Positions 222 through 62,006 are shown, counted from the whole stretch's first letter. The stretch is DNA of 62,006 bases, filler included, from Coriobacteriales bacterium (GCA_031263105.1; 5 parts of 5 records of this genome joined end to end with filler, not necessarily neighbours in it); one strand, 5' to 3'. Program-made: numbers and translations. The notes: generated by a model from the letters alone, not told the origin.

Positions 222-488
222 GTTACACGTCACACCCCCACCGTCATCCCGGGCCCCCACCGTCATCCCGGGCCCCCACTGTCATTCCGAGCCTGCCGAG
301 GAATCCTCGGCCGCGCCAGCGGTCGACCGCAGGCCGAAGGGCCCTGCGACCTGACGTTGGACACTGCGTGTCCAAAGATTCCTCGGCGGGGCTCGGAATG
401 ACAGTGGGGGCCCGGGATGACCGTGGGGGCCCGGGCTGACGGTGGGGGCTCGGGATGGCAGTGGGGGCTCGGGATGGCAGTGGGGGTG
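222..488. repeat. GTTAC-family palindromic element with tandem ~19-bp end units
   Basis: GTTACACGTCACACCCCCAC left end, core CTGTCATTCCGAGC...GCTCGGAATGACAG, repeated CCCCCACYGTCATCCCGGG units; right GTAAC end is lost. Confidence 0.9.
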
Positions 489-500
489 TAGAAGAAAAAC

Positions 501-1514
501 GTGTATGCGCCAAGGCGTAGAAAGTTGCATAGCAGTTGGAGTAACGAGCGCTTCGACGTGATCGCATCAGGCTCGCTGCTCGGCATCAACTACGGGGAGG
601 TCTCGTCCTTTCCCGTCGGCTATACCGACCAGATCGATATGTTCTCCCTCGATTTCGAGGAGTTCTGCTGGGCGAACGGCATGTCGAAGGACGCGCTGGC
701 GGATGTCTTGGCCCGCCTGGCAAAACATCAGCAGATTCCCGCAGCGACCCACGAGTACCTGCTCAAGCTCTATCGGGAGCACATCGTCACCGGCGGCATG
801 CCGGCGGTGCTCGCGTCGTTTGTGGAAGACCACGACTTCGGCGAGGTGCTGCGCATCCAGAAGGCGATAGTCAGCGACTACCTGGACGACATCGCCAAAT
901 ACGCCAAGGGCGCAGAAAAGGCGAAGGCGCGCGCCTGCTTCCTGTCCGTGCCGCGCCAACTGGCGAAAGACCACAAGAAGTTCCAGTACAGCGTTGTGGA
1001 GAAAGGCGGCAGCTCGCGCAAGTTCGCAGGAAGCCTCATGTGGCTCTACGATGCAGGCATGATCGACTTCTGCCACAGGCTCAAGCTCCCCGCGCTGCCC
1101 TTCGAGGGCAATGTCGACGCATCGGCGTTCAAGGTCTATATGGCAGACACCGGGCTGTTGGTGTCGATGCTCAACGAAGGCTCTGCGGTCGATGTCATCG
1201 ACGGCAACCTCGGCATCTACAAGGGCGCGATCTACGAGAACATCGTGGCGGAGGCACTGCGCAAGGCAGGGAGGAGGCTCTACTACTTCGAGTACCGGAG
1301 CCAGATCGAGATGGATTTCTTCGTCCGCTACAGACGCAAGGCGACCGCCGTGGAAGTCAAGTCCGCCGACAACAAGAAGTCCAAGTCGGCAAAGGCCATA
1401 CTGGAGAACTACGGGGTCGAACAGCTCGTGAGGCTCTCGACAAGGAATCTGGGAGAGGTCGGCCCGATCCTCACCCTGCCCCTCTACCTCGCAGCCTTCA
1501 TCGACCGCTGGTAG
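501..1514 (+). pseudogene. 5'-truncated AAA_14/DUF4143 ATP-binding protein
   Basis: Has ASGSLLG, SFPVG, LDFEEF, TGGMP, KVYMADTGLL, GAIYEN and EMDF..AVEVKS motifs. The N-terminal Walker A/B region is absent and the ORF begins right after a repeat element. Confidence 0.75.
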
Positions 1515-1704
1515 CGCGAGGGCAGCCGGGCTCTTCCCGGCCTGCAGGGAAGCGCAGGGTGACGGTCAGGCCGCAGCCTTGCCCGGAGGGCGCTTGCCCG
1601 GAGGCCGCTGTCATCTCGAGTGCGAGATCGCCTGCCATGCGCTGTGCGAGGTACAGACCCATCCCGGTGTTGGTGCCGCCGATGCCTGAGTGGCGAGAGA
1701 CGGC

Positions 1705-1896
1705 CTATCCAGCTGCGAACTCCCTGAGTTGCTGCTGTTGCTTCTTGAGTTTTCTCGCCTCTTTCTCGTGCATATGCTGTAGCTGGGACATGGCCAGCAA
1801 GCGGTCTTCAATGTCAGCCTCTTTGCTGACCGGCACAAGCGGACCGCCATAGCTGCCGGCCTCGAAATCCTTGGCCATCTGTTCGTAGTCCTTCAT
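1705..1896 (-). CDS. Small putative antitoxin
   Basis: 63 aa, ATGA overlap with the upstream toxin-like ORF. Confidence 0.5.
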   Translation of the reverse strand: MKDYEQMAKDFEAGSYGGPLVPVSKEADIEDRLLAMSQLQHMHEKEARKLKKQQQQLREFAAG

Positions 1897-2138
1897 CGCT
1901 TCCTCTTCTCGCTTACGCGATTGGCCGCATTGCGAACTCTCATTGCGTGGAACACGACCCGTTCGACATGGTCATAGGCCACCTCGACCACGTTCCCCTT
2001 GCTGTCGAAACCATACCTGAGCCTGTTGTCTGTTCCCTCTACATCCTTCGAGTCAAATGAGTTGTATATGACGCCCAGTATGTCCGCCTCCGCGATTCCA
2101 TGCCTGAAAGCGCTGTCAAGAAGCCTGAACTCATTCAC
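1893..2138 (-). CDS. Putative small toxin (BrnT/RelE-like fold family)
   Basis: SAFRHGIAEADIL...GFDSKGNVVEV...VFHAM pattern; GGAGG RBS upstream. Confidence 0.6.
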   Translation of the reverse strand: MNEFRLLDSAFRHGIAEADILGVIYNSFDSKDVEGTDNRLRYGFDSKGNVVEVAYDHVERVVFHAMRVRNAANRVSEKRKR

Positions 2139-2232
2139 ATGGGCCTCCTTTGAATGGCACGTCTCATAGTAGCACAGGAGGGGGGCAGCGACACAGGAGC
2201 AGTCACCCAGCCGCTCCTTGCTATCGGTCCCA

Positions 2233-2371
2233 TTGTTCAGACCCTACTGTCATCCGAGCCTGCCGAGGGATTCTCGGTCGCCCCAGCGGTCGACTGCGGC
2301 CAGAACTCGGCTGCTTCGCAGCCGAAGATTCCTCGCGGGGCTCGGAATGACAGTGGGGGCGCGAACACAAC
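2233..2371. repeat. GTTAC-family palindromic element (degenerate)
   Basis: CTGTCATCCGAGC...GATTCCTCGCGGGGCTCGGAATGACAGTGGGG. Confidence 0.85.
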
Positions 2372-2391
2372 GTCCCCTCCGCCTCGTTGCC

Positions 2392-3492
2392 CTACGGCCG
2401 TGTCCTCAGATACTCGGCCATGAACGGCACCGTGAGGTTCAGCTCGCCGCGCTGCTCGGAGGCGACGACTCCCGATTCCAGAAGCCTCCTCCGATATACC
2501 TGTGTATAGGCCTGTGACTCGCCTATACGTTCTTGGATGTCGCTGATACGACTGGGGCCGTCATCCTGCGCCATCGCTTCGAGGAAGCGGATGTCGGCGG
2601 CAGACAGCGGGTTCAGCACTGCCTTGTAGACGTTGTCCGCCATGTCCTGTCTGGAGACTTCGGCTGCGTTGGCCACTATAGCTCGTGTTATGTTGTCGTC
2701 ATCACCCAGATACTCAAGGATATAGTAGCCGACGAGCTGGAGCAGGTAGGGATAACCGCGCGTCGCAGCCACCGCGTCGTCGAGAGCCTCTTGATCGATT
2801 TCCTTGTTCAAGGACTTGAACGTCTTGGCAAAATGCAACCGGACACTGGTGTCTGAAAGCATGTCCAGCCGAGTCTTTCGTGCCCGATTGAGAAACGTCA
2901 GTATCTTATCGTTGAGAACAGACGATATCGAGTGCGACAGCCCCGCCATGGCGATGACGATGTTCCTGCCTTCTCCGACCAAGTGCTGATAGCTGGTAGC
3001 CAGCTCGCGCATCCTCATGGTATCAGGTTGCACCTCATCCACGAGAACCAGCACTCCTTTACCGTGTTTTTCCAGCTCCTCGCAAAGCATCGAGAGCTTG
3101 ATTCTGAACCCAAAGGTCTTGTCGGTGACCTCGTTGAACGTCAGGCCTATCGAGAAGCCGAGGGCACCCGCCGTAAATCCCTGAACAAGAGGTTTTCTTT
3201 CTGGTATAAACGGGGTTCCCTTGCGCTGGACGCCTTGAAGTATGTCATCGAGCATCTGGTCGTTGTCCACGGCGCTTGCGACGATAAAACCCCTGCGCTC
3301 GGCAAGCTCGGCGAACTCCAGCAAAAGCGCCGTCTTTCCCATGCCACGCTGTCCGATAATCAACATGGCTCGATCAGGATGTCCAGGGACGCTTTCCAGC
3401 CCTTTGAGGAATCCTTCCAGCACTGCGTCACGACCGATAATCTTATAGGGCTTATTGCCAAAGGTTGGCAGAAACGGAGGTTTTGCGACCAT
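2392..3492 (-). CDS. AAA/STAND-like ATP-binding protein with C-terminal winged helix
   Basis: Walker A GQRGMGKT, Walker B VLVDEVQ, GYPY motif, C-terminal HTH-like segment. Confidence 0.85.
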   Translation of the reverse strand: MVAKPPFLPTFGNKPYKIIGRDAVLEGFLKGLESVPGHPDRAMLIIGQRGMGKTALLLEFAELAERRGFIVASAVDNDQMLDDILQGVQRKGTPFIPERKPLVQGFTAGALGFSIGLTFNEVTDKTFGFRIKLSMLCEELEKHGKGVLVLVDEVQPDTMRMRELATSYQHLVGEGRNIVIAMAGLSHSISSVLNDKILTFLNRARKTRLDMLSDTSVRLHFAKTFKSLNKEIDQEALDDAVAATRGYPYLLQLVGYYILEYLGDDDNITRAIVANAAEVSRQDMADNVYKAVLNPLSAADIRFLEAMAQDDGPSRISDIQERIGESQAYTQVYRRRLLESGVVASEQRGELNLTVPFMAEYLRTRP

Positions 3493-3510
3493 GCTGACTC
3501 CTTTTTATAT

Positions 3511-3550
3511 TTTTTATTATCTTTTGTTATCCTTTGTTATCCTTTGTTAT
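3511..3550 (-). promoter_or_regulatory. Four 10-bp tandem repeats upstream of the ATPase gene (candidate operator)
   Basis: TTTTTATTAT CTTTTGTTAT CCTTTGTTAT CCTTTGTTAT. Confidence 0.5.
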
Positions 3551-3615
3551 TCTAGCAGGAGATCCGTCAGCGGGTCAAACGGACGTGGGACAGGCAGGGG
3601 ACCGGTAAGGCACCT

Positions 3616-3849
3616 GTCACTATTCACATTCTCACTGTCGTCCCGAGCCCGTCGAGGGATCTTCGGCTGCGAAGCAGCCGACCGCAGGTCGGAGGATCAT
3701 TCTCACTGTCATCCCGAGCCCGTCGAGGGATCTTCGGCTGCGAAGCAGCCGACCGCAGGTCGGAGGATCCCTCTAGGCGCAGTCGACCGCTTGCGCGGTC
3801 GAAGATCCCTCGACGGGCTCGGGATGACAGTGAGAATGTGACGCGTATC
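3616..3849. repeat. GTTAC-family element with a duplicated left arm
   Basis: CATTCTCACTGTCRTCCCGAGC...GGAGGATC occurs twice, then the mirror arm GCTCGGGATGACAGTGAGAATGTGA. Confidence 0.9.
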
Positions 3850-3879
3850 ATAGAAAGCGCCAGACAGTGTGAGATCCCG

Positions 3880-7183: not shown

Positions 7184-7313
7184 GCGTGCCGCCTCCTTAG
7201 GGTCCGACGTGTGCTGACAGACGTGTGCTGACAGTGTTGACAGGGGCCTACGGCCTGCCAAAGGCCTGCCGACGACCCGACACAAGCCTACCTCACCTGC
7301 GCCCCAAGCGCCA

Positions 7314-7330
7314 CTTACGGTTGTTGTAAG
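7314..7330. promoter_or_regulatory. Possible BceR-like response-regulator box
   Basis: Inverted repeat CTTAC-N7-GTAAG upstream of the Bce-like operon; spacing is 1 nt longer than the usual BceR box. Confidence 0.35.
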
Positions 7331-7352
7331 ATACGCCCGCCTCCCGCTCCCC

Positions 7353-7673
7353 GTAACTGGTCACACCCTCCACGGACACCCCCACTGCCACCCCGGCCCC
7401 CCCCAGAGCCCCCCGCCCCCCCCCGCCGAAAGCCGCCCGCCGCCGCAGGCCCCGCCGCGGGCGCGGGACGACGCACCGGCCGGGGGCCGCCGTGGATTCT
7501 TTGGCCCCGCCGGGTCCAACGGCAGGTCGGAGGGCCCTTCGACCTGCGGTCGACCGCTGGCGCGGTCGAGGATTCCTCGACAGGCTCGGAATGACAGTGG
7601 GGGCTCGGAATGACAGTGGGGGGCCGGGGTGGCAGTGGGGGGCCGGGGTGGCAGTGGGGGTGTGAACTGTAAC
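7353..7673. mobile_element. GTTAC-family MITE-like element, 8-bp TSD CGCTCCCC
   Basis: CGCTCCCC at 7345-7352 and 7674-7681; left half degraded or low quality. Confidence 0.8.
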
Positions 7674-7862
7674 CGCTCCCCTGTCTCAGACGCGCTTATC
7701 CCTCCCCCTGCGGCTTCCTGTGCGGCTCTCCTTGTAATCCCCTGGTCTATGCAGTATGTTAAAGGGGTGCATTCGTCGATTATGCTTCAAATGCACGCAC
7801 GACAGACATGAGGCGACAGGCTCGGGCAGCGGGCCCGTCGCAAGAGCAAGGCATACGGTTTT

Positions 7863-15611: not shown

Positions 15612-15836
15612 GTTACACGTCACCCCCTACTGTCATTCCGAGCGCAGCGAAGCGAAGCCGAGGAATCTTTGGGTTCGAGCGCCCGGAAAACGCACCGCGT
15701 TTTCAGCAAGAACGAGCCGACAGGCCCACGGAACACCTCAGCGCCCAACAGGCCAATCGACTGCCTTGCAGCCAAAGATTCCTCACGCTCGGGCTTTGCC
15801 CTCGGTTCGGAATGACAGTAGGGTGTGACGAGTAAC
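15612..15836. mobile_element. GTTAC-family element, degenerate 8-bp TSD
   Basis: GTTAC...GTAAC ends; flanks GGGCAAGG / GGGTAAAG (6 of 8 match). Confidence 0.8.
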
Positions 15837-17614: not shown

Positions 17615-17802
17615 GGTGCTGCTCACACCCCCACTGTCATCCCGAGCCTGCCGAGGGATCCTCGGCTGCGAAGCAGCCGACCACGAGCAGAGGGGCCTCG
17701 CGGCTGCGGTTGGTCGCTCACGCTTCGCGACCAAGGATTCCTCGGCGGAGTTTATCCTGAGCGCAGAGAAGGACCTTCGCTGCGCTCGGAATGACAGTGG
17801 AG
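17615..17802. repeat. GTTAC-family palindromic element
   Basis: TCACACCCCCACTGTCATCCCGAGC...GCTCGGAATGACAGTGG. Confidence 0.85.
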
Positions 17803-17961
17803 TCTGCAATTGTAGACTTATTTTACAGCTCTTACGTTCATACTATCGGGGCATCGCAGCATCGCATATCGTAGACACGGAACTGTCCCCTACTTACACT
17901 AACACAAGCGGGCCTGCAGGGCATACGTGCAGGTTGGTTGGTGTCTCAGATGGGGCTACAG

Positions 17962-18122
17962 GTTACTGGTCACACTGTCATTCCGAGCCGAGGGCGAAGC
18001 CCGAGCGTGAGGAATCTTTGGCTGCGAAGCAGACAACAAGCCCGGTTGGGCGCTGATGCGCCCAAAGATTCCTCGGCTTCGCTTTGCTACGCTCGGAATG
18101 ACAGTGGGGTCTGACCAGTAAC
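17962..18122. mobile_element. GTTAC-family MITE-like element, 8-bp TSD GGCTACAG
   Basis: GTTACTGGTCA...TGACCAGTAAC; GGCTACAG at 17954-17961 and 18123-18130. Confidence 0.9.
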
Positions 18123-20771: not shown

Positions 20772-20956
20772 TTTACGGTTAACACCCCCCCCCCCCCCCC
20801 CCCTGTCATTCCGAGCGCAGCGAAGCGGAGCCGAGGAATCTTTGGTCGCGAAGCGACCAACTGCGGCCAGGGGGCGCTTCGACCTGCGGTCGGCTGCTTC
20901 GCAGCCGAAGATTCCTCGGCGGGGCTCGGAATGACAGTGGGGGTGTGAACAGCAAC
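20772..20956. mobile_element. GTTAC-family MITE-like element, 8-bp TSD GCCTCGCA
   Basis: GCCTCGCA at 20764-20771 and 20957-20964; variant ends TTTAC/GCAAC. Confidence 0.85.
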
Positions 20957-23589: not shown

Positions 23590-23689
23590 NNNNNNNNNNN
23601 NNNNNNNNNNNNNNNNNNNNNNNNNNNNNNNNNTTAATTAATTAANNNNNNNNNNNNNNNNNNNNNNNNNNNNNNNNNNNNNNNNNNNN
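23590..23689. other. Artificial contig linker
   Basis: N-run, TTAATTAATTAA, N-run (100 nt). Confidence 0.98.
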
Positions 23690-24208: not shown

Positions 24209-24368
24209 GTTGCTGTTCACACCCCACTGTCATTCCGAGCCTGCCGAGGAATCCTCGACCGCGCAAGCGGTCGACCGCAGGTCGAAGGGGCCCCCGACCT
24301 GCCGTTGGACACTGCGTGTCCAAGGATCCCTCGGCAGGCTCGGAATGACAGTGGGTGCGAACAGTAAC
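24209..24368. mobile_element. GTTAC-family element flanked by an ~18-bp imperfect direct repeat
   Basis: GTTGC...GTAAC; flanks GTAGCGCCCCGCATAGC / GTAGCGCCCCGCACAGC. Confidence 0.8.
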
Positions 24369-24510: not shown

Positions 24511-26517
24511 ATGAGTGTGCGCTTCACAGGGCGTAGTGTGCTTCTTGTGTTCTGGGACATCGCAGCGACCTACTTCGCCTTCATCTTCGCGAGCGTCGCC
24601 ACGCAACAGACGGAAGGACTGTTCGACAACACTGACTTCCTGTTCCTGTTCGGCCTCCTCGCGGTCATAAACGTCGCCACGCTGCTCACCTTCCGCCTCT
24701 ACAACAACCTCTGGGAGTATGCAGGCACCAGCGAGATGCTCCAGATGGTCTACGCCACCGCCCTCGCGGTGTTTCTGGGTGCGCTCATCCACTATATCGC
24801 CGGCGTCCGTCTCCCCATACGCGTCTATCTGGTGGCGTGGGTGGTGTTCCTGTTCTGTGCAGGGGGCATACGCTTCCTGTTCCGCTACCTCTATCAGGGG
24901 AGGAGGAAGGCGCAGCGGCGCCCGCCGATCGGGGCACGGCCTCGGACGCTCGTCGTGGGGGCGGGGGAGACCGGCTCGCTCACCATCAAGCGCATGGTCG
25001 GCGGGGACTACGCCATGCAGGGGCTGCCGATCGTCGCGGTCGACGACGACCCCCAGAAGATCGGCCAGCGCATCAACGACATCAAGGTGGCAGGCAGCAC
25101 GGCGGACATCCTCGACCTCGTGAGGCGCTTTCAGATAGAGCAGATCGTCGTCGCCATCCCCAGTGCGACGGCAGCGGAGCGCCAGCGCATCTACGGCACC
25201 TGCATCCAGACCAACTGCCATCTGCTCACGCTGCCGAACGTGCGCGACCTGCGCATGGACGAGCTCGACGACGTGCGTCTGCGCGAGGTGGAGCTGACCG
25301 ACCTGCTCTCACGCGAGGAGGTCGTGTTCAACACGCGCATGGCGAGCGGCTACCTCGCCGGGAAGTGCGTCCTTATCACCGGCGGCGGCGGCTCCATAGG
25401 CTCCGAGCTCGCCCGGCAGGTCTGCACCGTTGCGCCTCGGCAGCTGGTCGTCTTCGACATCTACGAGAACACCGCCTACGAGCTCGAGCAGGAGCTCATG
25501 CGGCGCTATGACGACATAGACATCCGCGTGCAGATCGGCTCCGTCTGCGACCAGCGGTGCCTGGACCAGGTGTTCGCCACCTACCGGCCCGACGTGGTGT
25601 TCCATGCGGCCGCGCACAAGCACGTCCCGCTCATGGAGGCCAACCCGCGCGAGGCCGTGCTCAACAACGTCCTCGGGACGCTCGGCGTCGTGCAGGCGGC
25701 GGACCGGTACGGGGCAGGGCACTTCATCTTCATCTCGACCGACAAGGCGGTCAACCCCACCAGCGTCATGGGGGCGACGAAGCGCATGGGCGAGCTGATC
25801 GTGCAGTACTATGCGGCACGCTCGCAGACCTGCTTCACGGCGGTGCGCTTCGGCAACGTGCTGGGCTCGCACGGCAGCGCGATACCGTTCTTCAAGCGGC
25901 AGATAGCCGAGGGGGGCCCGGTGACCATCACGCACCCCGACATCACCCGCTACTTCATGACCATCCCCGAGAGCGCACGGCTGGTGATCCAGGCGGGCGG
26001 CATGGCGCGCGGCGGCGAGATATTCATCCTCGACATGGGCGAGCCCGTCCGTATCGAGGACCTTGCCCGCAAGCTCATACGCCTGAGCGGGCTTACCCCG
26101 GGGGTCGATATCGAGATACGCTACGTCGGCCTGCGCCCGGGCGAGAAGCTGTACGAGGAGCTGCTGATGGAGTCCGAGGCGACCAGCATGACGCAGGTGA
26201 AGGGCGTCATGGTGTCGTCCGGCGTGCCGCTCTCCCAAGAGGCGGTCGCGCAAAGGGTCGAGGCCCTGCGTGCCGCCTTGGACGGTGACGACGCAGGTAT
26301 CCGTGCGGCCTTGGAGGCACAGGTCCCCGACTATCGCCCCGCCCCGCCCCTGGGGAGCGCCCCAGGCGCCCCGCCCGCCCCGCCCGCCCCCGCCCCGCTC
26401 CCCGGCGATTCGGTCGGCAGCTCCGCCCCGCCCCTGGGGAGCGCCCCAGGCGCCCCAGGCGCCCCGCCCGCCCCGCCCGCCCCCGCCCCGCCCGCTCCGG
26501 ACGGCGGCGCGCAATGA
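24511..26517 (+). CDS. CapD/PglF-type nucleoside-diphosphate sugar dehydratase
   Basis: N-terminal TMs, ITGGGGSIGSEL, FHAAAHKHVP, STDKAVNPTSVMGATK, VRFGNVLGS, GLRPGEKLYEEL. Confidence 0.95.
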   Translation: MSVRFTGRSVLLVFWDIAATYFAFIFASVATQQTEGLFDNTDFLFLFGLLAVINVATLLTFRLYNNLWEYAGTSEMLQMVYATALAVFLGALIHYIAGVRLPIRVYLVAWVVFLFCAGGIRFLFRYLYQGRRKAQRRPPIGARPRTLVVGAGETGSLTIKRMVGGDYAMQGLPIVAVDDDPQKIGQRINDIKVAGSTADILDLVRRFQIEQIVVAIPSATAAERQRIYGTCIQTNCHLLTLPNVRDLRMDELDDVRLREVELTDLLSREEVVFNTRMASGYLAGKCVLITGGGGSIGSELARQVCTVAPRQLVVFDIYENTAYELEQELMRRYDDIDIRVQIGSVCDQRCLDQVFATYRPDVVFHAAAHKHVPLMEANPREAVLNNVLGTLGVVQAADRYGAGHFIFISTDKAVNPTSVMGATKRMGELIVQYYAARSQTCFTAVRFGNVLGSHGSAIPFFKRQIAEGGPVTITHPDITRYFMTIPESARLVIQAGGMARGGEIFILDMGEPVRIEDLARKLIRLSGLTPGVDIEIRYVGLRPGEKLYEELLMESEATSMTQVKGVMVSSGVPLSQEAVAQRVEALRAALDGDDAGIRAALEAQVPDYRPAPPLGSAPGAPPAPPAPAPLPGDSVGSSAPPLGSAPGAPGAPPAPPAPAPPAPDGGAQ

Positions 26518-27293
26518 CCGCTCTTCGTCTCCCTAACCTGAGGAAGGACAGCTTCATCCTCACCTCCCTCGTTTCGAGGGACTTCAAGCTCAAGTACCGG
26601 CGCAGCGTGCTCGGAATCGTGTGGAGCGTGCTGAACCCCTTGTTGCAGATGGTCGTGCTCTCGGCGATATTCTCGTTCATCTTCCGCTTCGACATCGAGA
26701 ACTTCCCCCTCTACCTCATCCTGGGCCAGATACTGTTCAACTTCATGTCCACCTCCACCTCGACGGGGGTGGTGTCCATCATCGAGTCGGCCCCCCTCAT
26801 CAAGAAGATACGGGTCAACAAGTTCATCTTCCCTTTGGAGAAGGTGCTCTTCGAGCTCGTGAACTTCGCCCTATCGCTCATTGCGGTGCTACTCGTCATG
26901 ATATATTTCCAGGTGATGCCGACGGCCAACGTCCTGCTCCTGCCGCTGCTGCTGGTCTATATGCTGCTGTTCTGCTCGGGGCTTGCGCTCCTGCTCGCGG
27001 CCTTGGCGGTGTTCTTCCGCGACATCATCTACCTCTGGGGCGTGGTGACGCTCACGTGGATGTATGCGACGCCGCTGTTCTACCCCATCAGCGCACTGGC
27101 AGACTGGATGCAGCAGATCATGCAGTTCAACCCCATGTACCACTACGTGACCTACTTCCGGGAGATTGCTCTCTGGGGCACGACCCCCGGCCTGCTTGAG
27201 AACCTGCTGTGCCTGGGGATGGCCCTGCTCACCTTCGCGGTCGGCTTCCTGGTCTTCCGCAAGAGCCAAAAGAAGTTCATCCTCTATGTGTAA
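26514..27293 (+). CDS. wzm: ABC-2 polysaccharide export permease
   Basis: RDFKLKYRRSVLGIVWSVLNPL, VFFRD, YATPLFYP, NPMYH. Confidence 0.92.
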   Translation: MTALRLPNLRKDSFILTSLVSRDFKLKYRRSVLGIVWSVLNPLLQMVVLSAIFSFIFRFDIENFPLYLILGQILFNFMSTSTSTGVVSIIESAPLIKKIRVNKFIFPLEKVLFELVNFALSLIAVLLVMIYFQVMPTANVLLLPLLLVYMLLFCSGLALLLAALAVFFRDIIYLWGVVTLTWMYATPLFYPISALADWMQQIMQFNPMYHYVTYFREIALWGTTPGLLENLLCLGMALLTFAVGFLVFRKSQKKFILYV

Positions 27294-27370
27294 GATCCTT
27301 CGGCTGCGGGGCTTCGCCCCGGAGTTTACCCTGAGCGCAGCCGAAGGGCTCAGGATGACAGTGGGGTGCG
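27294..27370. repeat. Half copy of the palindromic element between wzm and wzt
   Basis: GATCCTTCGG...CTCAGGATGACAGTGGGGTG. Confidence 0.75.
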
Positions 27371-27395
27371 AGTTGCGACTGTGTAAGGAATACGG

Positions 27396-32456: not shown

Positions 32457-32677
32457 GTTACACGTCACACCCCCACTGTCATCCCGAGCCCCACTGTCAC
32501 CCCGAGCCCCACTGTCACCCCGAGCCCCCACTGTCATTCCGAGCCCCACTGTCACCCCGAGCCCCACTGTCACCCCGAGCCCCACTGTCACCCCGAGCCC
32601 CACTGGCAGTCCGAGCCGGGCGAGGCCTCTGCGACCGCGGCGGCGGGCGACCCCCCGTCGACCGGGGCCCTGAGCTG
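32457..32677. repeat. GTTAC-family element with about 8 tandem 18-19-bp end units (cut by gap)
   Basis: GTTACACGTCACACCCC followed by (CCCCACTGTCAYYCCGAG)n. Confidence 0.9.
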
Positions 32678-32777
32678 NNNNNNNNNNNNNNNNNNNNNNN
32701 NNNNNNNNNNNNNNNNNNNNNTTAATTAATTAANNNNNNNNNNNNNNNNNNNNNNNNNNNNNNNNNNNNNNNNNNNN
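32678..32777. other. Artificial contig linker
   Basis: N-run, TTAATTAATTAA, N-run. Confidence 0.98.
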
Positions 32778-34503: not shown

Positions 34504-34677
34504 GTTATGAGTTCACACCCCCACTGTCATTCCGAGCTCCGCCGAGGAATCTTTGGACACGCAGTGTCCAACGGCAGGTCGGGGGGCCCTTCGACCTGCG
34601 GTCGACCGCGTGCGCGGTCGAAGATCCCTCGACAGGCTCGGGATGACAGTGGGGTGTGAACACATATTGTCAGTAAC
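34504..34677. repeat. GTTAC-family palindromic element
   Basis: TTCACACCCCCACTGTCATTCCGAGC...GCTCGGGATGACAGTGGGGTGTGAA...GTAAC. Confidence 0.9.
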
Positions 34678-37785: not shown

Positions 37786-38038
37786 GTTGCTGCGTACACC
37801 CTCACTGTCATTTCGAGCCCCGCCGAGGAATCTTTGGACACGCAGTGTCCAACGGCAGGCCAGGGGGCCCTTCGACCTGCGGTCGACCGCTGGCGCGGTC
37901 GAGGATTCCTCGACAGGCTCGGAATGACAGTGGGGCTCGGAATGACAGTGGGGCTCGGAATGACAGTGGGGCTCGGAATGACAGTGGGGCTCGGAATGAC
38001 AGTGGGGCTCGGAATGACAGTGGGGTGTGAACGGTAAC
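37786..38038. repeat. GTTAC-family element with six exact 18-bp end units
   Basis: (GCTCGGAATGACAGTGGG)x6 at 37917-38024, ending GTGTGAACGGTAAC. Confidence 0.92.
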
Positions 38039-42682: not shown

Positions 42683-42782
42683 NNNNNNNNNNNNNNNNNN
42701 NNNNNNNNNNNNNNNNNNNNNNNNNNTTAATTAATTAANNNNNNNNNNNNNNNNNNNNNNNNNNNNNNNNNNNNNNNNNNNN
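42683..42782. other. Artificial contig linker
   Basis: N-run, TTAATTAATTAA, N-run. Confidence 0.98.
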
Positions 42783-42915
42783 GCGTTTTCCGGGCGCTCG
42801 GGTCCCGTGGGCCTGTCGGCCCGTCCTCGCTGAAAACGCGGTGCGTTTTCCGGGCGCTCGGACCCAAGGATTCCTCGGCGGGGCTCGGAATGACAGTGGG
42901 GGCGTGAACTGTAAC
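42783..42915. repeat. Right part of a GTTAC-family element
   Basis: GATTCCTCGGCGGGGCTCGGAATGACAGTGGGGGCGTGAACTGTAAC; cargo is the reverse complement of that in the 15612 copy. Confidence 0.88.
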
Positions 42916-43017: not shown

Positions 43018-43092
43018 GCTGGTATGGCGCAATGGCAGCGCAACGGTTTTGTAAACCGTAGGTTGTGGGTTCGACTCCCTCTACCAGCTCCA
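43018..43092 (+). tRNA. tRNA-Thr(TGT)
   Basis: Acceptor GCTGGTA/TACCAGC, D stem GCGC/GCGC, anticodon ACGGT-TTTGTAA-ACCGT, GGTTCGACTCC, encoded CCA; one T-stem mismatch. Confidence 0.93.
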
Positions 43093-47821: not shown

Positions 47822-48050
47822 GTTACTGTGCACACCCCCACTGTCATCCCGAGCCTGCCGAGGGATCTTTGGCCGCGCCAGCGGCCGACCGCAGGTCGAA
47901 GGGCCCCCTGGCCTGCCGTTGGACACTGCGTGTCCAAAGATTCCTCGGCGGAGCTCGGAATGACAGTGAGGGCTCGGGATGACAGTGAGGGCTCGGGATG
48001 ACAGTGGGGTGTGAACAGTAACGTAGGGTGTGACGTGTGTGACGTGTAAC
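47822..48050. mobile_element. GTTAC-family element with an exact 15-bp flanking duplication
   Basis: CCGTAATGTGTTTCC at 47807-47821 and 48051-48065; two GTAAC right ends in tandem. Confidence 0.88.
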
Positions 48051-52469: not shown

Positions 52470-52569
52470 NNNNNNNNNNNNNNNNNNNNNNNNNNNNNNN
52501 NNNNNNNNNNNNNTTAATTAATTAANNNNNNNNNNNNNNNNNNNNNNNNNNNNNNNNNNNNNNNNNNNN
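52470..52569. other. Artificial contig linker
   Basis: N-run, TTAATTAATTAA, N-run. Confidence 0.98.
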
Positions 52570-53709: not shown

Positions 53710-53749
53710 GGGCGGGTCTTCTCCGTTTCTGGGTTGGGTGCTTCACATT

Positions 53750-54339: not shown

Positions 54340-54407
54340 GGGATCTCCTTCCACAGACTACGCTTGTATATCAAAAGTATATCATCCGTAGCTCTGAAGG
54401 GGAACCC

Positions 54408-56122: not shown

Positions 56123-56149
56123 TTCCTTCTCCTTTCATCAGTGAAAATT

Positions 56150-56387
56150 GTTGCTGCGCGCAACTCCTACTGTCCACAACTCCTACTGTCATTCCGAGCG
56201 GAGCGCAGCGGAGCCGAGGAATCTTTGGGTTCGAGCGCCCGGAGAACAGTCCGGCGGACTGTTCTCAGCGAGAACGGGCCGACAGGCCCACGGAACGCGT
56301 AAGCGCCCAGCCGGACCAGTTGGGCGCTTACGCGCCCAAAGATTCCTCGGCTGCGCGCCCTGCATGGGCGCTCCGCTCGGAATGACA
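56150..56387. repeat. GTTAC-family element inside the ABC operon
   Basis: CTGTCATTCCGAGC...GCTCGGAATGACA with cargo like the 15612 copy. Confidence 0.85.
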
Positions 56388-56402
56388 TACTGTTGAGTAC
56401 TA

Positions 56403-56636
56403 CTACTCCTCCGCGCGGCCGAGCACGAAGTAGAGGATGGGGCCGATGATGTTTACCAGAAGCACCACGACCACCCAGAGTATCCGCGTCCCCACCTTGT
56501 AGCTTGTGTGCCGGAATATGCTCACCAACGCGCTTACCAGAAGGACGATCTGGATAAGCGCCAGCGGCACGAGCACGGGCAGCACCGATACCAATAGGTC
56601 GTAAAGCGGGGCGGGATTTGAGCCAATCGACTCCAT
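56403..56636 (-). CDS. PLDc_N-type small membrane protein
   Basis: Two TMs, W.VVV....IIGPILYFVLGR. Confidence 0.85.
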   Translation of the reverse strand: MESIGSNPAPLYDLLVSVLPVLVPLALIQIVLLVSALVSIFRHTSYKVGTRILWVVVVLLVNIIGPILYFVLGRAEE

Positions 56637-56785
56637 AGCAACACTCCTTCATACATTTGACTCTGACAATACCTCCCCGCGTTCGCCAATTCATTCGTCG
56701 CGCTCGCAGGCTCGCCGCTCCTTCGACCGTCCACTGGACGGTCGAACCTTTCTCTTGAGACTTCCAACGAGACTTCAAGCCACCG

Positions 56786-58109: not shown

Positions 58110-58113
58110 GATC

Positions 58114-58503
58114 CTATCCTTTTCGGGTTGCGGCCTCGCCTGCGGCAATGGCCTGCCTGACGGTCGTTTGGAACAGCTTTGAATCGATGCCCTGACTTCG
58201 TGCCTCGATGACGAGGCGGACGAGCGCGGCCCTGAGCCCTTCGAGGTAGCTGGCGGTATACGTGGGCGGCGCGATGACGCGGGCCCCGCTGCGCCCGTTG
58301 ATGCGCAGGTAGCCCTCCTCGGCGAGCACGCGGTAGGCCTTGTTCACGGTATGCAGGTTGATACCGAGGTCGACGGCGAGCTGCCGCACCGAGGGGAGCC
58401 TGTCGCCCTCGACGAGCTCGCCGCACACGAGCGCATCCACTATCTGGTTGCGTATCTGCGTGTAGAGCGGGACGTCGCTGGCAGGCTCTATGGCGAGAAA
58501 CAC
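58114..58503 (-). CDS. GntR (YtrA subfamily) regulator
   Basis: PLYTQI, LPSVRQLA.DLGINLHTVNKAY; GTG start with GGAGG RBS. Confidence 0.92.
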   Translation of the reverse strand: MFLAIEPASDVPLYTQIRNQIVDALVCGELVEGDRLPSVRQLAVDLGINLHTVNKAYRVLAEEGYLRINGRSGARVIAPPTYTASYLEGLRAALVRLVIEARSQGIDSKLFQTTVRQAIAAGEAATRKG

Positions 58504-58554
58504 GGAAGGCCTCCTTTGCCGTCGCTGGCACTGCCTCCACAGCGTGAGGACTTT

Positions 58555-58575
58555 TGTTATATACATACTATAACA
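58555..58575. promoter_or_regulatory. YtrA-type operator
   Basis: TGTTATA-N7-TATAACA upstream of gntR. Confidence 0.75.
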
Positions 58576-58600
58576 GATTATGGACCCTTGCAAGGACACG

Positions 58601-58763
58601 GTTACACGTCACACCCCCACTGTCATTCCGAGCTCCGCCGAGGAATCTTTGGACACGCAGTGTCCAACGGCAGGTCAGGGGCCCTTCGGCCTGCGGTCGA
58701 CCGCTGGCGCGGTCGAGGATTCCTCGGCAGGCTCGGAATGACAGGGGGGGTGTGACGTGTAAC
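58601..58763. mobile_element. GTTAC-family MITE-like element, 8-bp TSD AGGACACG (cleanest copy)
   Basis: GTTACACGTCACACCCCC...GGGGGTGTGACGTGTAAC; AGGACACG at 58593-58600 and 58764-58771. Confidence 0.93.
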
Positions 58764-58867
58764 AGGACACGTTTTGTCCTATGCGCGCTGTGCCCGTGCG
58801 GTCGATTTGTTACTATGGAACCCTCTTGGACATAGAACAGGACGAGGCAAGGCTGAAGGGACCGACG

Positions 58868-60253
58868 ATGACAGAACAGGGAACGAGGCAGGGCAGGTTC
58901 TTCTACGGATGGTGGATCGTGGCGGGGGGCTTCCTCATCATGGCCACCTGCTACACCATCTTCGTCAACTGCATACCGCTGTTCCAGGCGCATATCGTCG
59001 AGGACCTGGGCATCACCATGGGTGCCTTCAACACGGGCGTGTCGCTCTGCACCGTGGTGGCCATCTTCGCCAGCCTTGCCTTCGGCGCACTCGTGGACAA
59101 GGTCAGCGCGCGCGTCCTCGGCGGCGTCACCGTCATCACCACCTCGGTCGTTCTGGTGCTGTTCTCCTTCATCACGGAGATATGGCAGCTCTACGCCCTC
59201 TGCGTCGTCGCCGGCATGGTGGTGGTGGCCGGCACCCGGCTTCTGGCCAGCGTGCTGACCGCCAACTGGTTCACCCTGAAGCGGGGGCTGGCGGTCTCGA
59301 TCGCGCTCTCCGGCTCCGGCTTCGGCGGCGTGCTGCTCTCCCCTCTTACCAGCACCATCATCGTGAACTGGGGCTGGCGTCCGGCCTTTCTGGTGCTTGC
59401 GACCATCGCCGCCTGTGCCGCCCTTCCCATCGCGCTGGTGGCCTTCCGCAACCGTCCTGCCGACAAGGGCCTCGTCCCCTACGGCTCCGGTGAGACGGAG
59501 AAGGTCAGGCCCGACCGCTCGCCGGACGTCCCCGTCACCGTGTCCGTCGGCTGGAAGGTGCTGCGAACGAACAGCGGCTTCTGGCTCCTGATCCTCGGGT
59601 TCGTCGCCATGGGCATCGTCAACGGGGCCGTCATCACCAATTCCGTCTCCAATATGACCAGCGTCACCCTGAACGGCCACGAGGTCGTCACCGGCGGGCA
59701 CGATGCCATCTGGGCCGGGTATGTCTGGTCGCTGTACCTGGGCGTGGTCATCGTGGCAAAGATCGCGCTCGGTGCCATCTACGACCGCTTCGGCCTGCGC
59801 TTCGGCACCGTCGTCGGCACCGTTGCCTGCGCCGTCGCCGCCGTCGCGCTCTGCTTTCCGCAAAGCGACGTCGCGCCCCTCGTGGCCGCCGTGGCCTTCG
59901 GCTTCGGCACCTGCATGGGCACGGTCTCGCCTCCGGTCATGGTGGTGAAGGAGTACGGGAAGAAGGACCTCGGCCTGGTCACCGGCATCGTCACGGCCTT
60001 CGAGCTGTTCGGCGCGGCCGTGGGGGCGGTGGTCTCCGGCGTGTTCTTCGACGCCTTCCTCTCCTTCGTGCCCGCCTGGATAATGGCCCTGGCGGCGAGC
60101 CTCGTCATGGGCGTGACCCTGCTGGCCTCCGTCCCGGCCGCCCGCAACCTGGTGGACAGGCGCATCGCCGCCGGCGCCCCTCAGCTGGACGCCGAGGGCT
60201 TCGAGGTCGCCCCTGTCGAGAACGCGCCTATCGAGATCGTGCCTGGCGCCTAG
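58868..60253 (+). CDS. MFS transporter
   Basis: FFYGWWIV, GALVDK, NWFTLKRGLA, GAIYDRFG; about 12 TMs. Confidence 0.92.
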   Translation: MTEQGTRQGRFFYGWWIVAGGFLIMATCYTIFVNCIPLFQAHIVEDLGITMGAFNTGVSLCTVVAIFASLAFGALVDKVSARVLGGVTVITTSVVLVLFSFITEIWQLYALCVVAGMVVVAGTRLLASVLTANWFTLKRGLAVSIALSGSGFGGVLLSPLTSTIIVNWGWRPAFLVLATIAACAALPIALVAFRNRPADKGLVPYGSGETEKVRPDRSPDVPVTVSVGWKVLRTNSGFWLLILGFVAMGIVNGAVITNSVSNMTSVTLNGHEVVTGGHDAIWAGYVWSLYLGVVIVAKIALGAIYDRFGLRFGTVVGTVACAVAAVALCFPQSDVAPLVAAVAFGFGTCMGTVSPPVMVVKEYGKKDLGLVTGIVTAFELFGAAVGAVVSGVFFDAFLSFVPAWIMALAASLVMGVTLLASVPAARNLVDRRIAAGAPQLDAEGFEVAPVENAPIEIVPGA

Positions 60254-60384
60254 AAGTGCCGATGTATCCCGTCATTGCGAGCGAAGCGAAGCAATCCAGT
60301 CGGAGACCCGCAGGCCACGGATGGATTGCTTCGTCGCTTCGCTCCTCGCAATGACAGAAAGGGGATTAATCGGCACTTCTCTAG
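60250..60384. mobile_element. CTAG-ended element carrying a CGTC-type REP
   Basis: CTAGAAGTGCCGAT...ATCGGCACTTCTCTAG around CGTCATTGCGAGC...CTCGCAATGACA. Confidence 0.82.
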
Positions 60385-61499
60385 CCGACCGTTACGAGGT
60401 CATAGCTACGGGTGCCGATGCCGAGCTCCTCGGCGTGGACGAGCGAGACGACCCAGTCCGAGGAAGGGTTGATGGCATGCAGGTGGTCCGTCCCCTCTCC
60501 GTCGGAAGGGGCGGCGGCGTACTTCTCCGACAGGGCGCTGCCGGCGATGACCGGTTGCGCGTTGATGGCGTCCGCCACCGCCTGGTCCAGCGCAACGGGG
60601 TCCGACGACGCGAACATGCCCACGTTGGGCACCACGGGGGAATCGTTGCCGGCGAAGCAGTCGCACTGCGGGGTGACGTCTATGGCGACCGCCACATGCA
60701 GGCTCTGCGTGTTCCGCACGACGGCGGCCGCGTACTCGGCAATCTTCATGTGCATGTCCTCCCAGTTGCGGTTCCAGGCAGGATTGACCGCCTTCTGGGG
60801 ACAATAGCTGATGCAGTGGCCGCAGCCCACGCAGTTGCCGTTGATGAGGGCCTTGTGCCCAGCGATGTCGATGGCGGCATGGGCGCAGCTCTTCAGGCAT
60901 TTGCGGCAGCCGGTGCACTTCTCGGCGATGACGCTGGGCATGCCCTTCGAGTGCATGACCATCTTGCCTGCGCGTGAGCCGCAGCCCATGCCGAGGTTCT
61001 TGAGGGTGCCGCCGAAGGCCGCCGAGGCGCAGCCCTTGGCATGGGTGAGCGAGACGAGGACGTCGGCATCGAGGACGGTGCGGCCGATGCGCGCCTCCTG
61101 GACGTATGTGCCGTCCGGCACGGGGACCACCACCTCGTCGTCCCCGCGCAGCCCGTCGGCTATGACGACCTCGCAGCCGCAGGAGTCGTGGTTGAACCCG
61201 TTGAGCCGTGCGCATTCCAAGTGGTCGATAAGGTCGTTGCGCATGCCGATGTACAGGGTGCTGCAGTCGGTGACGAAGGGCTTGCCGGAAAGCCGCCTCA
61301 CCTCCTGGGCGATCGTCCGTGTGTAGGCGGGTCTGAGGAACGACACGTTGCCCTGCTCGCCGAAATGCGTCTTGATGGCGACGTACTTGCCCGAAAGGTC
61401 CATCCCCTCCAGGCCCGCCGCCGCCAGAAGCCTCCGCAGCTTCGCAGGCACGCTGTCGTCCGACGCCACCCGCATCGTCGTGAAGTACACCTGGGCCAT
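60381..61499 (-). CDS. DUF362 Fe-S protein with a 2x[4Fe-4S] ferredoxin insert
   Basis: VAIKTHFGE, GGTLKNLGMGC, CTGCRKC...C, CVGCGHC...CP, SSDPVALD. Confidence 0.9.
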   Translation of the reverse strand: MAQVYFTTMRVASDDSVPAKLRRLLAAAGLEGMDLSGKYVAIKTHFGEQGNVSFLRPAYTRTIAQEVRRLSGKPFVTDCSTLYIGMRNDLIDHLECARLNGFNHDSCGCEVVIADGLRGDDEVVVPVPDGTYVQEARIGRTVLDADVLVSLTHAKGCASAAFGGTLKNLGMGCGSRAGKMVMHSKGMPSVIAEKCTGCRKCLKSCAHAAIDIAGHKALINGNCVGCGHCISYCPQKAVNPAWNRNWEDMHMKIAEYAAAVVRNTQSLHVAVAIDVTPQCDCFAGNDSPVVPNVGMFASSDPVALDQAVADAINAQPVIAGSALSEKYAAAPSDGEGTDHLHAINPSSDWVVSLVHAEELGIGTRSYDLVTVG

Positions 61500-61526
61500 G
61501 CTCTCCTCCTTCACGCTAGCGCCTCC

Positions 61527-61694
61527 CTAGGGAGACGATGATCAAGCATTGTACACCGAATTCCGAGTCGATTTGCCCCGTCCCTGTTCGGGCGGGCGGC
61601 GGCACTACTCGCGGTAATGCCACCGTTCGCACGGGCGGGGACGGGGCAAATCGACCGGAAGGCGGTGTACAATGCTTGATCATCGTCTCCCTAG
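61527..61694. mobile_element. CTAG-ended MITE-like hairpin with a perfect 32-bp terminal inverted repeat
   Basis: CTAGGGAGACGATGATCAAGCATTGTACACCG ... CGGTGTACAATGCTTGATCATCGTCTCCCTAG. Confidence 0.9.
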
Positions 61695-61789
61695 GGGCAT
61701 GGGCCGGCTCCCCTGTCCGCATGGGCCGACCCTCTCTCCGCATGAGCCTCACACTCGGACATTATACCCGTTGCACGTGCCCTGCACAG

Positions 61790-62006
61790 GTTACATTCCG
61801 CACTCCCACTGTCCACCCCGGGCCCCGACCCCCCACCGCCACCCCGGGCCACCACCGCCACCCCGGGCCTGTCGAGGAATCCTTGATCGCGAAGCGACCA
61901 ACGGCAGGTCGGGGGGCCCTTCGACCTGCGGTCGACCGCGGGGGCGGGCGAGGGTTACGCGGCCGGCGCGGAATGACAGTGGGGGCCCGGGGGGGGGGGG
62001 GGGGGC
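61790..62006. repeat. GTTAC-family element (degraded, at window end)
   Basis: GTTAC..., CTGTCGAGGAATC, CCTTCGACCTGCGGTCGACC, GGAATGACAGTGGGGG. Confidence 0.75.

Follow-up and report, generated by a model that had tools for sequence, protein, structure and literature searches.

A gene-less, high-copy MITE family with IS66-like tips and a recurring promoter offset in a termite-gut Coriobacteriales bacterium

Described systems that resemble the repeat family

Classical MITEs, such as Correia/NEMIS of Neisseria, RUP of pneumococcus, Nezha, and Chunjie, are short, gene-less, high-copy elements with inverted tips, target duplications, and strong fold-back, and are mobilized in trans. The repeat family considered here has these structural traits and probably the same mode of mobilization; it differs from classical MITEs in being very dense (3.6% of the genome) and in combining a mosaic interior with subterminal tandem units of variable number and a fixed promoter offset. 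REP/REPIN sequences are GC-rich extragenic palindromes that occur as inverted pairs in high copy and are associated with RAYT transposases; target duplications are not expected for them, and they are not known to have DDE-type tips or 8-bp duplications. The present family shares with REP/REPIN the inverted GC-rich palindromes and the high copy number but is unlike them in having both DDE-type tips and 8-bp duplications.

Within the IS66 family, ISDge4 of Deinococcus geothermalis belongs to the ISBst12 group and has GTAACTGCTCAGCA tips and an 8-bp repeat, according to the portion of its description consulted (PMC12898284). The MITEs have the same duplication length and similar tips of the GT(A/T)AC-TG-(C/T)TCA type (GTAACTGCTCAGCA for ISDge4 versus GTTACTGTTCACAC for the MITEs), and their putative partner elements, like those of the ISBst12 group, encode a single large DDE_Tnp_IS66 transposase. 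Among plasmid-borne proteins, the best relatives of the partner enzyme bear IS66-family annotations, but the enzyme is just 24-27% identical to them and falls below the NCBIfam IS66 cut-off. No description of promoter-linked insertion for IS66 elements was found in the literature searched; in the same portion of its description, ISDge4 was caught inside a coding gene, though under selection for gene loss (PMC12898284).

In the literature searched, as far as the consulted sections extend, insertion at a constant distance from promoters is described only for the Mutator-like TnGBS, ISLre2, and ISKra4, at 13-17 bp. The TnGBS conjugative elements, ISLre2, and ISKra4 are alike to the present family in using DDE chemistry, in inserting at a fixed distance upstream of σA/σ70 promoters, and in inserting in both orientations where the inverted repeats are near-identical, according to those sections (PMC3942029). 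They differ in that their transposase family is unrelated and their insertions lie ~22-25 bp closer to the promoter than the MITEs. Membership of the present family in this type was considered and rejected: the partner is IS66-like, and the distance to the -35 box is 38-39 nt and not 13-17 bp.

Copies, anatomy, and target duplications

The window analyzed, a stretch of 62,006 nucleotides including filler, consists of five contigs from a 2.9-Mb MAG (86% complete) of a termite-gut bacterium, joined by N/TTAATTAATTAA linkers at 23590-23689, 32678-32777, 42683-42782, and 52470-52569; because of these joins, the span 222-62006 is not continuous chromosome. The window contains 19 matches to the outer terminus GTTACNNNTCACACCCC (≤2 mismatches), whereas 100 dinucleotide shuffles averaged 0.32 and never exceeded 2; genome-wide the count is 545. 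For the inner arm CTGTCATYCCGAGC, also with ≤2 mismatches, there are 54 matches in the window, with 1.24 expected. About 18 copies or fragments were counted in the window, close to the figure of about 19 in the initial annotation. MITE-like DNA in the MAG comprises 553 merged loci and 104,570 bp (3.6%), and 184 of the 500 contig ends lie within it. Complete copies (n=130) are 109-542 bp in length, too short for a transposase, and are up to 93-97% identical to one another; no copy contains a gene. The repeats are a real MITE family, gene-less and high-copy.

The terminal inverted repeats are ~17-24 nt long, GTTAC-NGK-TCACACCCC(C)ACTG, and are accompanied by a subterminal tandem unit of 18-19 bp (CACTGTCATYCCGAGCCCC) present 1 to 10 times per element; the interior holds two inverted arms and small GC-rich hairpins arranged as a mosaic. 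The element boundary is sharp: at the ends of the 73 copies with ≤1 duplication mismatch, conservation begins exactly at the G of GTTAC and extends 17-24 nt. The three-layer design with interchangeable hairpin modules, as first proposed from the window, is real: among the 130 complete copies, 55 have the module combination A+B+E, and 24 other combinations were seen. Growth and shrinkage of the tandem units would most likely occur via replication slippage or aberrant end processing.

The initial annotation listed four copies with exact 8-bp duplications and one with a 6/8 match, all of which were confirmed (coordinates here carry no strand). The exact duplications flank a 321-bp MITE at 7353..7673 (CGCTCCCC; 4-5 right-arm tandem units; TANNNT 62 nt outside the left tip), a 161-bp MITE at 17962..18122 (GGCTACAG; left tip without the CCCC run), a 185-bp MITE at 20772..20956 (GCCTCGCA; TAAAGT 61 nt outside the left tip), and a canonical 163-bp MITE at 58601..58763 (AGGACACG), which has perfect 17-nt tips and an RNA fold consisting of a single long stem with three small hairpins (-126.5 kcal/mol, z -15.5). 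The 6/8 duplication GGGCAAGG/GGGTAAAG flanks a 225-bp MITE at 15612..15836 with a module D interior and TATGAT 62 nt outside its left tip; a second 6/8 duplication (GCATAGCA/GCGTAGCG) was found at the 160-bp MITE at 24209..24368, which has TAGAAT 63 nt outside its right tip.

The remaining copies in the window are variously truncated or decayed. The copy at 222..487 has an intact left tip (222-238), three tandem units in the left arm and five in the right, and a right tip truncated after GGGGGTGT. Mutated tips (CCATTGTTCAGACCC...) enclose modules B and C in the decayed copy at 2233..2387, and the decayed copy at 3616..3849 has four mismatches per tip, an internal 71-bp tandem duplication, and TAGAAT 61 nt outside its left tip. 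The left tip is degenerate (GGTGCTGCTCACACCCC) and the right tip decayed at 17615..17812; only a right end remains at 27290..27379, its tip with three mismatches; and the left end at 32457..32677, which has eight tandem 18-19-bp units, continues into a contig break. Both tips of the 163-bp copy at 34505..34667, which is without a duplication, are mutated in their first five bases. Six identical 18-bp units form part of the right arm of the 253-bp copy at 37786..38038, with TATCCT 62 nt outside the right tip. The right part of a copy at 42783..42915 begins at a contig break and has TAGACT 60 nt outside its tip, followed by a tRNA gene (43018-43089). The 201-bp MITE at 47822..48022 has TANNNT 61 nt out on both sides, and the remnant of another right end lies directly after it (48023-48050), which suggests two insertions at one site. 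A variant copy at 56150..56400 has the inner arms and module D/F cargo without GTTAC tips, and a partial copy with diverged tandem units is found at the window end (61800..62006). An additional palindrome at ~60252-60380 is a member of a different family.

Genome-wide, an exact 8-bp duplication flanks 54 of 127 complete copies, far above chance, and all 54 octamers differ from one another. Duplications with ≤1 mismatch are present in 71/127 copies, compared with 0/128 in a control shifted by 20 bp, and 46/127 copies have octamers with ≥3 mismatches. Flanking repeats of other lengths were absent at k=4-7, 9, 11, and 12, with at most one at any other length in the range 4-12. The copy at C15:8449-8610, with CAGAGCTG on both sides, is nested in another repeat whose uninterrupted paralogues in C145 and C232 have CAGAGCTG or CAGAGCCG once. 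The empty sites anticipated at the outset were found in one paralogous case (C15 versus C145/C232) but not as alleles: the public runs, in which contigs break at MITEs, contained no clean case.

Candidate IS66-like partner elements and the promoter offset

Two other bacterial genera of the same family have low-copy MITEs, with the tips kept and interiors that are wholly different. Other gut genomes and metagenomes contain 2.2-2.5-kb elements that carry these 11-17-nt tips, are flanked by 8-bp duplications, and encode a divergent single-ORF IS66-family (ISBst12-like) transposase, in agreement with the IS66 lead of the initial annotation. At locus L102 an exact 17-nt MITE tip adjoins a 565-aa protein that passes the Pfam cut-offs for PF03050 DDE_Tnp_IS66 (39.9 bits, cut-off 23.1) and DUF6444 and falls below that of the NCBIfam IS66 equivalog NF033517 (112.6 bits, cut-off 180); a broken homologue of this protein adjoins another tip. 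A long coiled-coil stretch is present in the N-terminal region of the partner enzyme, and a small ORF lies upstream; for L102, the locus scanned, this 137-aa ORF has no match to an IS66 accessory family in Pfam or NCBIfam. The ISBst12-group layout is one without tnpA/tnpB accessory genes. A 558-aa homologue from a MITE-rich Lachnospiraceae MAG lies inside a 2.25-kb element with GTTACTGTTCA ends, and many elements of ~2.24 kb have GTTACTGTTCA. Of the full-length elements, L210 matches best in its tips, which are 16-17 nt long, MITE-like, and placed around a transposase homologue; no duplication flanks it, and no promoter lies at the offset. Among the genome-contig loci scanned, mostly from gut Firmicutes and Coriobacteriia MAGs, 17 have a short tip pair and an exact 8-bp duplication; a tip pair 1.8-3.2 kb apart is present at 45 of 80 metagenome loci, 11 of these 45 with an exact 8-bp duplication.

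Searches of the MAG itself (86% complete) with PF03050 and with a two-protein profile found no IS66-type transposase. Four relatives gave none that was convincing (the sole match is a 23.5-bit fragment), and among 401 genomes sampled from the class weak transposase matches occur in 3 only. The transposase bounded by such ends that was originally envisaged thus exists in other taxa, and none was found in the MAG. For this reason we infer mobilization in this organism from what the MITEs have in common with elements of other taxa, namely the tips, the length of the duplication, and the target offset; the original proposal of mobilization in trans gains support from 8-bp duplications far above chance and from tips common to IS66-family elements.

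With promoters called by motif only, a -10-like hexamer lies 60-63 nt beyond the tip on at least one side of 67 of 121 complete copies, versus 4-10/121 in seven control windows; 54/121 copies have no such hexamer at the offset. Of 377 flanks, 103 have a TANNNT that begins 60-63 nt out, compared with ~1-9 per single offset elsewhere. TTGAC, spaced by 17 bp, and an extended -10 G are conserved in the aligned flanks, and nothing else is. Among foreign MITE flanks, 36/129 have a near-consensus TATAAT at 61-63, and TANNNT is found at 61-63 in 25/67 flanks of full-length insertion sequences (ISs); in all three groups, the copies of the MAG, the foreign MITEs, and the full-length ISs, the start of the -35 box peaks 38-39 nt from the tip. 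The orientation count at the promoter offset is 21:14. A check for downstream ORFs was non-discriminating (93/97 versus 230/262). The excess at this offset in the MITEs, together with the same offset in foreign MITEs and full-length elements, points toward promoter-measured insertion. The initial annotation mentions neither this offset nor the differing interiors of tip-bearing relatives in other genera.

Proposed movement and alternative explanations

The best explanation, to which we assign a probability of roughly 0.8, is that these are gene-less MITEs with a mosaic interior, moved in trans by an IS66-like DDE transposase and inserted at a fixed offset from promoters. The mover of these particular copies would be a trans-acting DDE enzyme of the divergent, single-large-ORF branch of IS66 (ISBst12-like). 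Staggered cuts made 8 bp apart by such a transposase would produce the 8-bp duplication. The tips alone appear to be needed for movement, because unrelated interiors accompany the same tips in other genera and phyla. Placement is not random: in either orientation, the tip is usually found 38-39 nt upstream of the -35 box of a σ70-type promoter and 61-62 nt upstream of its -10; the transposase complex most likely measures from the promoter and may read bound RNA polymerase or the shape of the DNA just upstream of it.

A partner of the Mutator-like TnGBS/ISLre2/ISKra4 kind has the attraction that, in the literature searched, no other prokaryotic DDE elements are described as inserting at a constant distance upstream of σA promoters, and that the ISKra4 group combines promoter-linked insertion with both orientations and near-symmetric inverted repeats, in the sections consulted (PMC3942029). 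According to the same sections, however, the distance of those elements to the -35 is 13-17 bp (PMC3942029), compared with 38-39 nt here; ISLre2-family repeats are 9 bp in the part of the source consulted (PMC8024623), whereas those of the MITEs are strictly 8 bp; the MITE tips adjoin IS66-family genes; and the ISKra4 and IS256 models have no match in the MAG. The ISLre2 model had no match even in control genomes and is hence uninformative for the MAG. A Mutator-like partner is already disfavored and extremely improbable. It is also very unlikely that the arms are an independent REP/REPIN system that a tyrosine transposase of the RAYT type moves or maintains and that was captured, as the initial annotation had suggested, between DDE ends. 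The inner arms are indeed short palindromes rich in GC, one of four Y1_Tnp matches in the genome is RAYT-like, and 189 of 571 inner-arm clusters have no tip (≤3 mismatches) within 120 bp. Yet 55 of these 189 touch contig ends, and among the 40 tipless clusters listed many are single chance matches in genes or have indel-bearing tips, so that the tipless arms are in part decayed tips, contig-end fragments, or chance matches. Among the Y1_Tnp matches of the MAG, no RAYT gene flanked by inverted CTGTCATYCCGAGC arms was found: the RAYT-like gene (C191) and the fourth match (C165) have no arm motif within ~1.5 kb, and the two IS200-like genes have themselves landed in MITE arms. Relatives in other genera carry the tips without these arms, which makes the arms the cargo of one lineage; the proposed REP capture was not borne out.

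The promoter distance could instead reflect survival, if insertion were random and only copies just upstream of promoters were tolerated or useful, for example as read-through insulators. The very stable palindrome (-126.5 kcal/mol) could block read-through, in a compact genome an insertion does least harm in the intergenic DNA upstream of promoters, and 54/121 copies are off the offset. Harmlessness, however, predicts a broad intergenic spread, whereas the observed peak is 2-3 nt wide and >10x background; the offset recurs in unrelated hosts of very different base composition and in full-length ISs, and there is no conservation between the duplication and the -35 box. We regard selection of this kind as unlikely. 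More plausible, though still doubtful, is a fossil swarm, extinct in this genome, whose transposase was lost rather than left unassembled: the partner gene was found neither in the MAG nor in relatives, and many copies have decayed tips or duplications (octamers with ≥3 mismatches in 46/127). Against this, 54/127 duplications are still perfect and identity between copies reaches 93-97%; moreover, with the MAG 86% complete and 184/500 contig ends in MITE DNA, the bin would probably lack a multicopy IS.

It is reasonably probable that a widespread single-ORF IS66-family branch of gut Firmicutes and Coriobacteriia selects its target by measuring from the σ70 promoter. The tip would come to lie 38-39 nt upstream of the -35, at ~-73 to -66 from the start site and just beyond the UP-element position. 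This behavior would have arisen independently of the Mutator-like TnGBS/ISLre2/ISKra4, and the termite-gut MITE offspring would then have colonized a large share of promoters. The ruler could be the N-terminal coiled coil, or contact with RNA polymerase or with DNA wrapped upstream.

The location of MITEs at 184/500 contig ends makes the family a main cause of the MAG not assembling. Transposase site choice is generally weak or sequence-based; a ruler set by the promoter would let an element multiply without breaking genes and would place a strong palindrome beside many promoters. If an IS66-like enzyme does measure from the promoter, it would be a second, unrelated solution besides that of the TnGBS-type elements, and such measuring could explain the high densities reached by IS66-type MITEs.

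Structure and mobility of the family

The window is not one stretch of chromosome, because four runs of N with the linker TTAATTAATTAA (23590-23689, 32678-32777, 42683-42782, and 52470-52569) join five contigs. The first of these is C131 of the source genome, a Coriobacteriales MAG (2,905,931 bases in 250 contigs, 64.5% G+C, completeness 86%, contamination 6.5%). With up to two mismatches allowed, there are 19 outer termini GTTACNNNTCACACCCC in the window (mean 0.32 and maximum 2 in shuffles); the inner arm CTGTCATYCCGAGC is present 54 times versus 1.24 expected. Reading the copies bears out the layered design proposed in the initial annotation, with a further element, one or more 18-19-bp units, between the tip and the CTGTCATYCCGAGC...GAGGRATC arms that enclose small hairpins. 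About 18 copies or fragments were counted where about 19 had been described; the four exact octamer duplications quoted there and the 6/8 case are all present, and a second 6/8 duplication lies at 24209/24368. An Rfam gathering search of the window returned one tRNA and nothing else.

Across the MAG there are 545 tips (171 exact, 216 with one mismatch, and 158 with two), forming 138 adjacent plus/minus pairs, of which 130 span no more than 1000 bp (109-542 bp). When the k bases outside each element end were compared for k = 2 to 12, exact flanking repeats were found at k = 8 in 54 of 127 copies, at k = 10 in one, and at k = 4-7, 9, 11, and 12 in none. Octamers differ by one mismatch in a further 17 copies and by two in 10, followed by a chance-like tail; in a control shifted 20 bp outwards, 0 of 128 pairs had fewer than two mismatches, so the earlier concern that duplications might be no commoner than chance does not hold. 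The 54 exact octamers are all different, with little sequence preference, and conservation starts exactly at the G of GTTAC. Reconstructed empty sites blasted against the MAG gave one clean case: the element at C15:8449-8610, with CAGAGCTG on both sides, is nested in a different repeat of ~165 bp, and the C145 and C232 copies of this repeat lack the insertion and have a single octamer (C15:8330-8680, C145:18915-19078, and C232:3-125; ends GGAA(T/C)TGTAAAGTAATAAA...TTACTTTACAG). Duplication, boundary, and this paralogous empty site together identify the family as a true transposable element. No allelic empty site was found in public-run contigs; the only public run with a good match to the stretch (share 0.91) comes from a study labelled termite gut metagenome, where contigs end at MITEs and the joints listed all connect different copies. 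Eight longer tip pairs in the MAG (1.3-16.8 kb apart) were rejected as larger elements because their octamers do not match.

MITE-like DNA covers 104,570 bp (3.6% of the assembly) in 553 merged loci and lies at 184 of 500 MAG contig ends. Runs of GCCCC/GCCCCGCCC repeats occur at window 26336-26505 and at many MAG contig ends, where long homopolymer G or C runs are also seen; both probably arose in assembly, at breaks caused by repeats. Other repeats in the window include a second palindromic family at 60252-60380 (tips AGAAGTGCCGAT...ATCGGCACTTCT, core CCGTCATTGCGAGCGAAGCGAAGCAATCC), with similar cores on at least C79, C91, C137, C184, and C221, and a tandem repeat at a contig start (23719-23847) of at least three exact 39-bp units, CCCACCGTCACACGCGGGCTGTGACAGAACGGTACCGTC, which contain the tip-like GGTACCGTCCCCACCGTCACAC.

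As RNA, a canonical 163-nt copy is predicted to fold into one long stem of tips and arms with three small hairpins (-126.5 kcal/mol versus -63.9 +/- 4.0 for shuffles, z -15.5). Hairpins A (GGACAC-GCA-GTGTCC), B (CGGTCGACCG), and E (CAGGTCG...CGACCTG) are combined in 55 of 130 complete copies, and the remainder show 24 other combinations, in which hairpins C, D, F, and G also take part, so that the interior is a genuine mosaic. The 18-19-bp unit is present once in 200 of 260 arms and two to ten times in 53, and its number may differ between the two arms of one copy. At some other ends the tandem repeats follow a different register: there are units of 21-25 nt that are each nearly a whole tip, and units of 32 nt in which 24 nt of tip are joined to 8 extra bases, as in the arrays at C14:18231-18354 and C250:5000-5189. 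The 8 extra bases equal the target duplication in length. These two arrays would fit repeated insertion at a single site set by a promoter, with later deletion; for tandem units in general, slippage, repeated hits at one site with deletion, and aberrant end joining are all possible origins.

The proposal that the inner arms are a captured, independent REP system is not supported: of 571 arm clusters, 382 lie no more than 120 bp from a tip. Among the remaining 189, 55 are located at contig ends, and those listed include chance matches within genes and tips disrupted by small insertions or deletions. Four Y1-transposase matches were found in the MAG; a RAYT-like Y1 gene has no arm motifs nearby, and two matches are IS200-like genes (146 and 159 aa) inserted in a MITE arm just after CTGTCATT, at C197:3555-4200 (L230:1340-2010) and on C168 (L229:1400-2030). 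Both have the left junction ...CCCCACTGTCATTG|CCATAAAGAAACCACAGGC; this IS200 relative seems to find its short target in the MITE arm.

IS66-like elements with the same tips

Models for DDE_Tnp_IS66, Transposase_mut, and ISKra4 have zero matches in the MAG, and the ISLre2 model has none there but none in any control genome either. No IS66-like partner gene was found in the 86%-complete MAG or its near relatives. The three DDE_Tnp_1 (IS5-type) genes and the IS110- and IS630-like ORFs of the MAG were rejected as partners, being without these tips. Solitary tips on C105 and C35 were likewise rejected as IS ends, since the nearby ORFs are host genes only (glycosyltransferase paralogues, and small and membrane genes, respectively). 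Most unpaired tips in two relatives' genomes (G009 and G040) belong to short MITEs whose second tip is weaker, and one is a chance match in a gene; a profile fragment in the former (contig C51, 23.5 bits) has a translation unlike a transposase and was not counted. Among 401 genomes of the class there are three distant IS66-like genes, one of which (locus L142) has GTAACCGTTCAG ends and no clean duplication.

Tip matches with up to one mismatch, counted in 34 genomes of the family, number 387 in the studied MAG, 12 and 15 in two other genera, and 0-4 in the rest; the low-copy relatives in the two genera are MITEs of 145-240 bp with the same tips, 8-bp duplications, and unrelated interiors. Scanning one genome per species for exact matches turned up at least 107 stretches carrying the tip. 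Among the matches listed, most come from MAGs titled Lachnospiraceae, Christensenellaceae, Clostridiales, Peptococcaceae, Coriobacteriaceae, and Eggerthellaceae, some scattered single tips look like chance, 17 loci are short tip pairs with exact 8-bp duplications, and the tip adjoins a transposase gene in two genomes. In one of these (L102) a 565-aa protein passes PF03050 (39.9 bits, cut-off 23.1) and DUF6444 and scores 112.6 bits with the NCBIfam IS66 model, below its 180-bit cut-off; the other (L069) holds a broken homologue. A 558-aa homologue (38% identical) in a MITE-rich Lachnospiraceae genome lies in an element of 2.25 kb that has GTTACTGTTCA at each end. A metagenome scan queried with two transposase proteins, from which 80 loci were kept, gave 45 with a tip pair 1.8-3.2 kb apart, 11 of them with an exact 8-bp duplication (10 different sites); the 2535-bp element at L210 has tips GTTACTGTTCACACCCT / GTTACTGTTCACACCCC, the same as the MITE's own. 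The nearest annotated plasmid relatives are the 'IS66 family transposase' of Clostridium, Deinococcus, Geobacillus, and cyanobacteria (24-27% identity). ISDge4, of the ISBst12 group, is described in the excerpted text of PMC12898284 with tips GTGACTACTCAGCA / GTAACTGCTCAGCA, close to GTTACTGTTCACAC of the MITE, and like it has an 8-bp direct repeat.

A small coiled-coil ORF lies just upstream of the transposase gene at L102:1970-2383 (137 aa, no family match except weak ZapB) and L146:3188-3361 (57 aa).

Tips and duplications around IS66-like genes elsewhere support the IS66 lead of the initial annotation and, judged from sequence, mark the predicted partner as a divergent member of the IS66 family with a single large ORF. 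We infer that such an enzyme acted in the MAG itself. The family is a real, very abundant MITE of IS66 (ISBst12-like) descent.

Fixed distance to predicted promoters

When 377 flanks were read outwards from each tip with up to one mismatch, the hexamer TANNNT started at offsets of 60, 61, 62, and 63 nt from the tip in 11, 35, 37, and 20 flanks, respectively; other offsets have about 1-9 flanks each, and on the opposite strand the increase is slight. In an alignment of 100 positive flanks on the hexamer, T-T-G-A/C-C appears with a spacing of 17 bp and a G stands two bases ahead of the hexamer; together these read as an ordinary promoter of sigma-70 type with an extended -10. No further conservation is seen between this predicted promoter and the duplication, so the promoter would be the host's and not the element's. 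The hexamer is found on at least one side of 67 of 121 complete copies and on both sides of four, versus 4-10 of 121 in seven control windows; the other 54 of 121 do not have it at this distance. The internal orientation of the element is not fixed (21:14). Of the 68 MAG flanks scored when both boxes were demanded, 42 have a -35 box beginning 37-40 nt from the tip (peak 38-39). A test for ORFs downstream of the predicted promoters gave no discrimination in this GC-rich MAG.

One window copy ends at 42915, with a TAGACT hexamer 60 nt downstream and then a tRNA gene (43018-43089), an example of a predicted stable-RNA promoter serving as landing mark.

The same offset recurs in other hosts: near-consensus TATAAT starts at 61-63 in 36 of 129 distinct flanks of foreign MITEs, and TANNNT at 61-63 in 25 of 67 distinct flanks of full-length IS66-like elements, these 25 including most copies with perfect duplications; the -35 box peaks at 38-39 in both sets alike. 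A narrow peak common to autonomous elements and to hosts of very different base composition makes selection alone hard to invoke, and the shared offset, measured to promoters predicted from motifs, suggests a property of the transposition complex itself.

The one published parallel found for promoter-linked landing is that of the Mutator-like TnGBS, ISLre2, and ISKra4 elements, which insert 13-17 bp upstream of the -35 box; the excerpted account of these promoter-targeting elements (PMC3942029) makes no mention of IS66. The literature searched, including excerpts of PMC8024623 and PMC4232325, yielded nothing on these elements and no published account of promoter-measured landing for the IS66 transposase family; the IS or the MITE may have a name and entry in ISfinder. 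The MITE family is ordinary in kind, and what sets it apart is its density, its repeat-built ends, and a landing site that appears to be measured from promoters.
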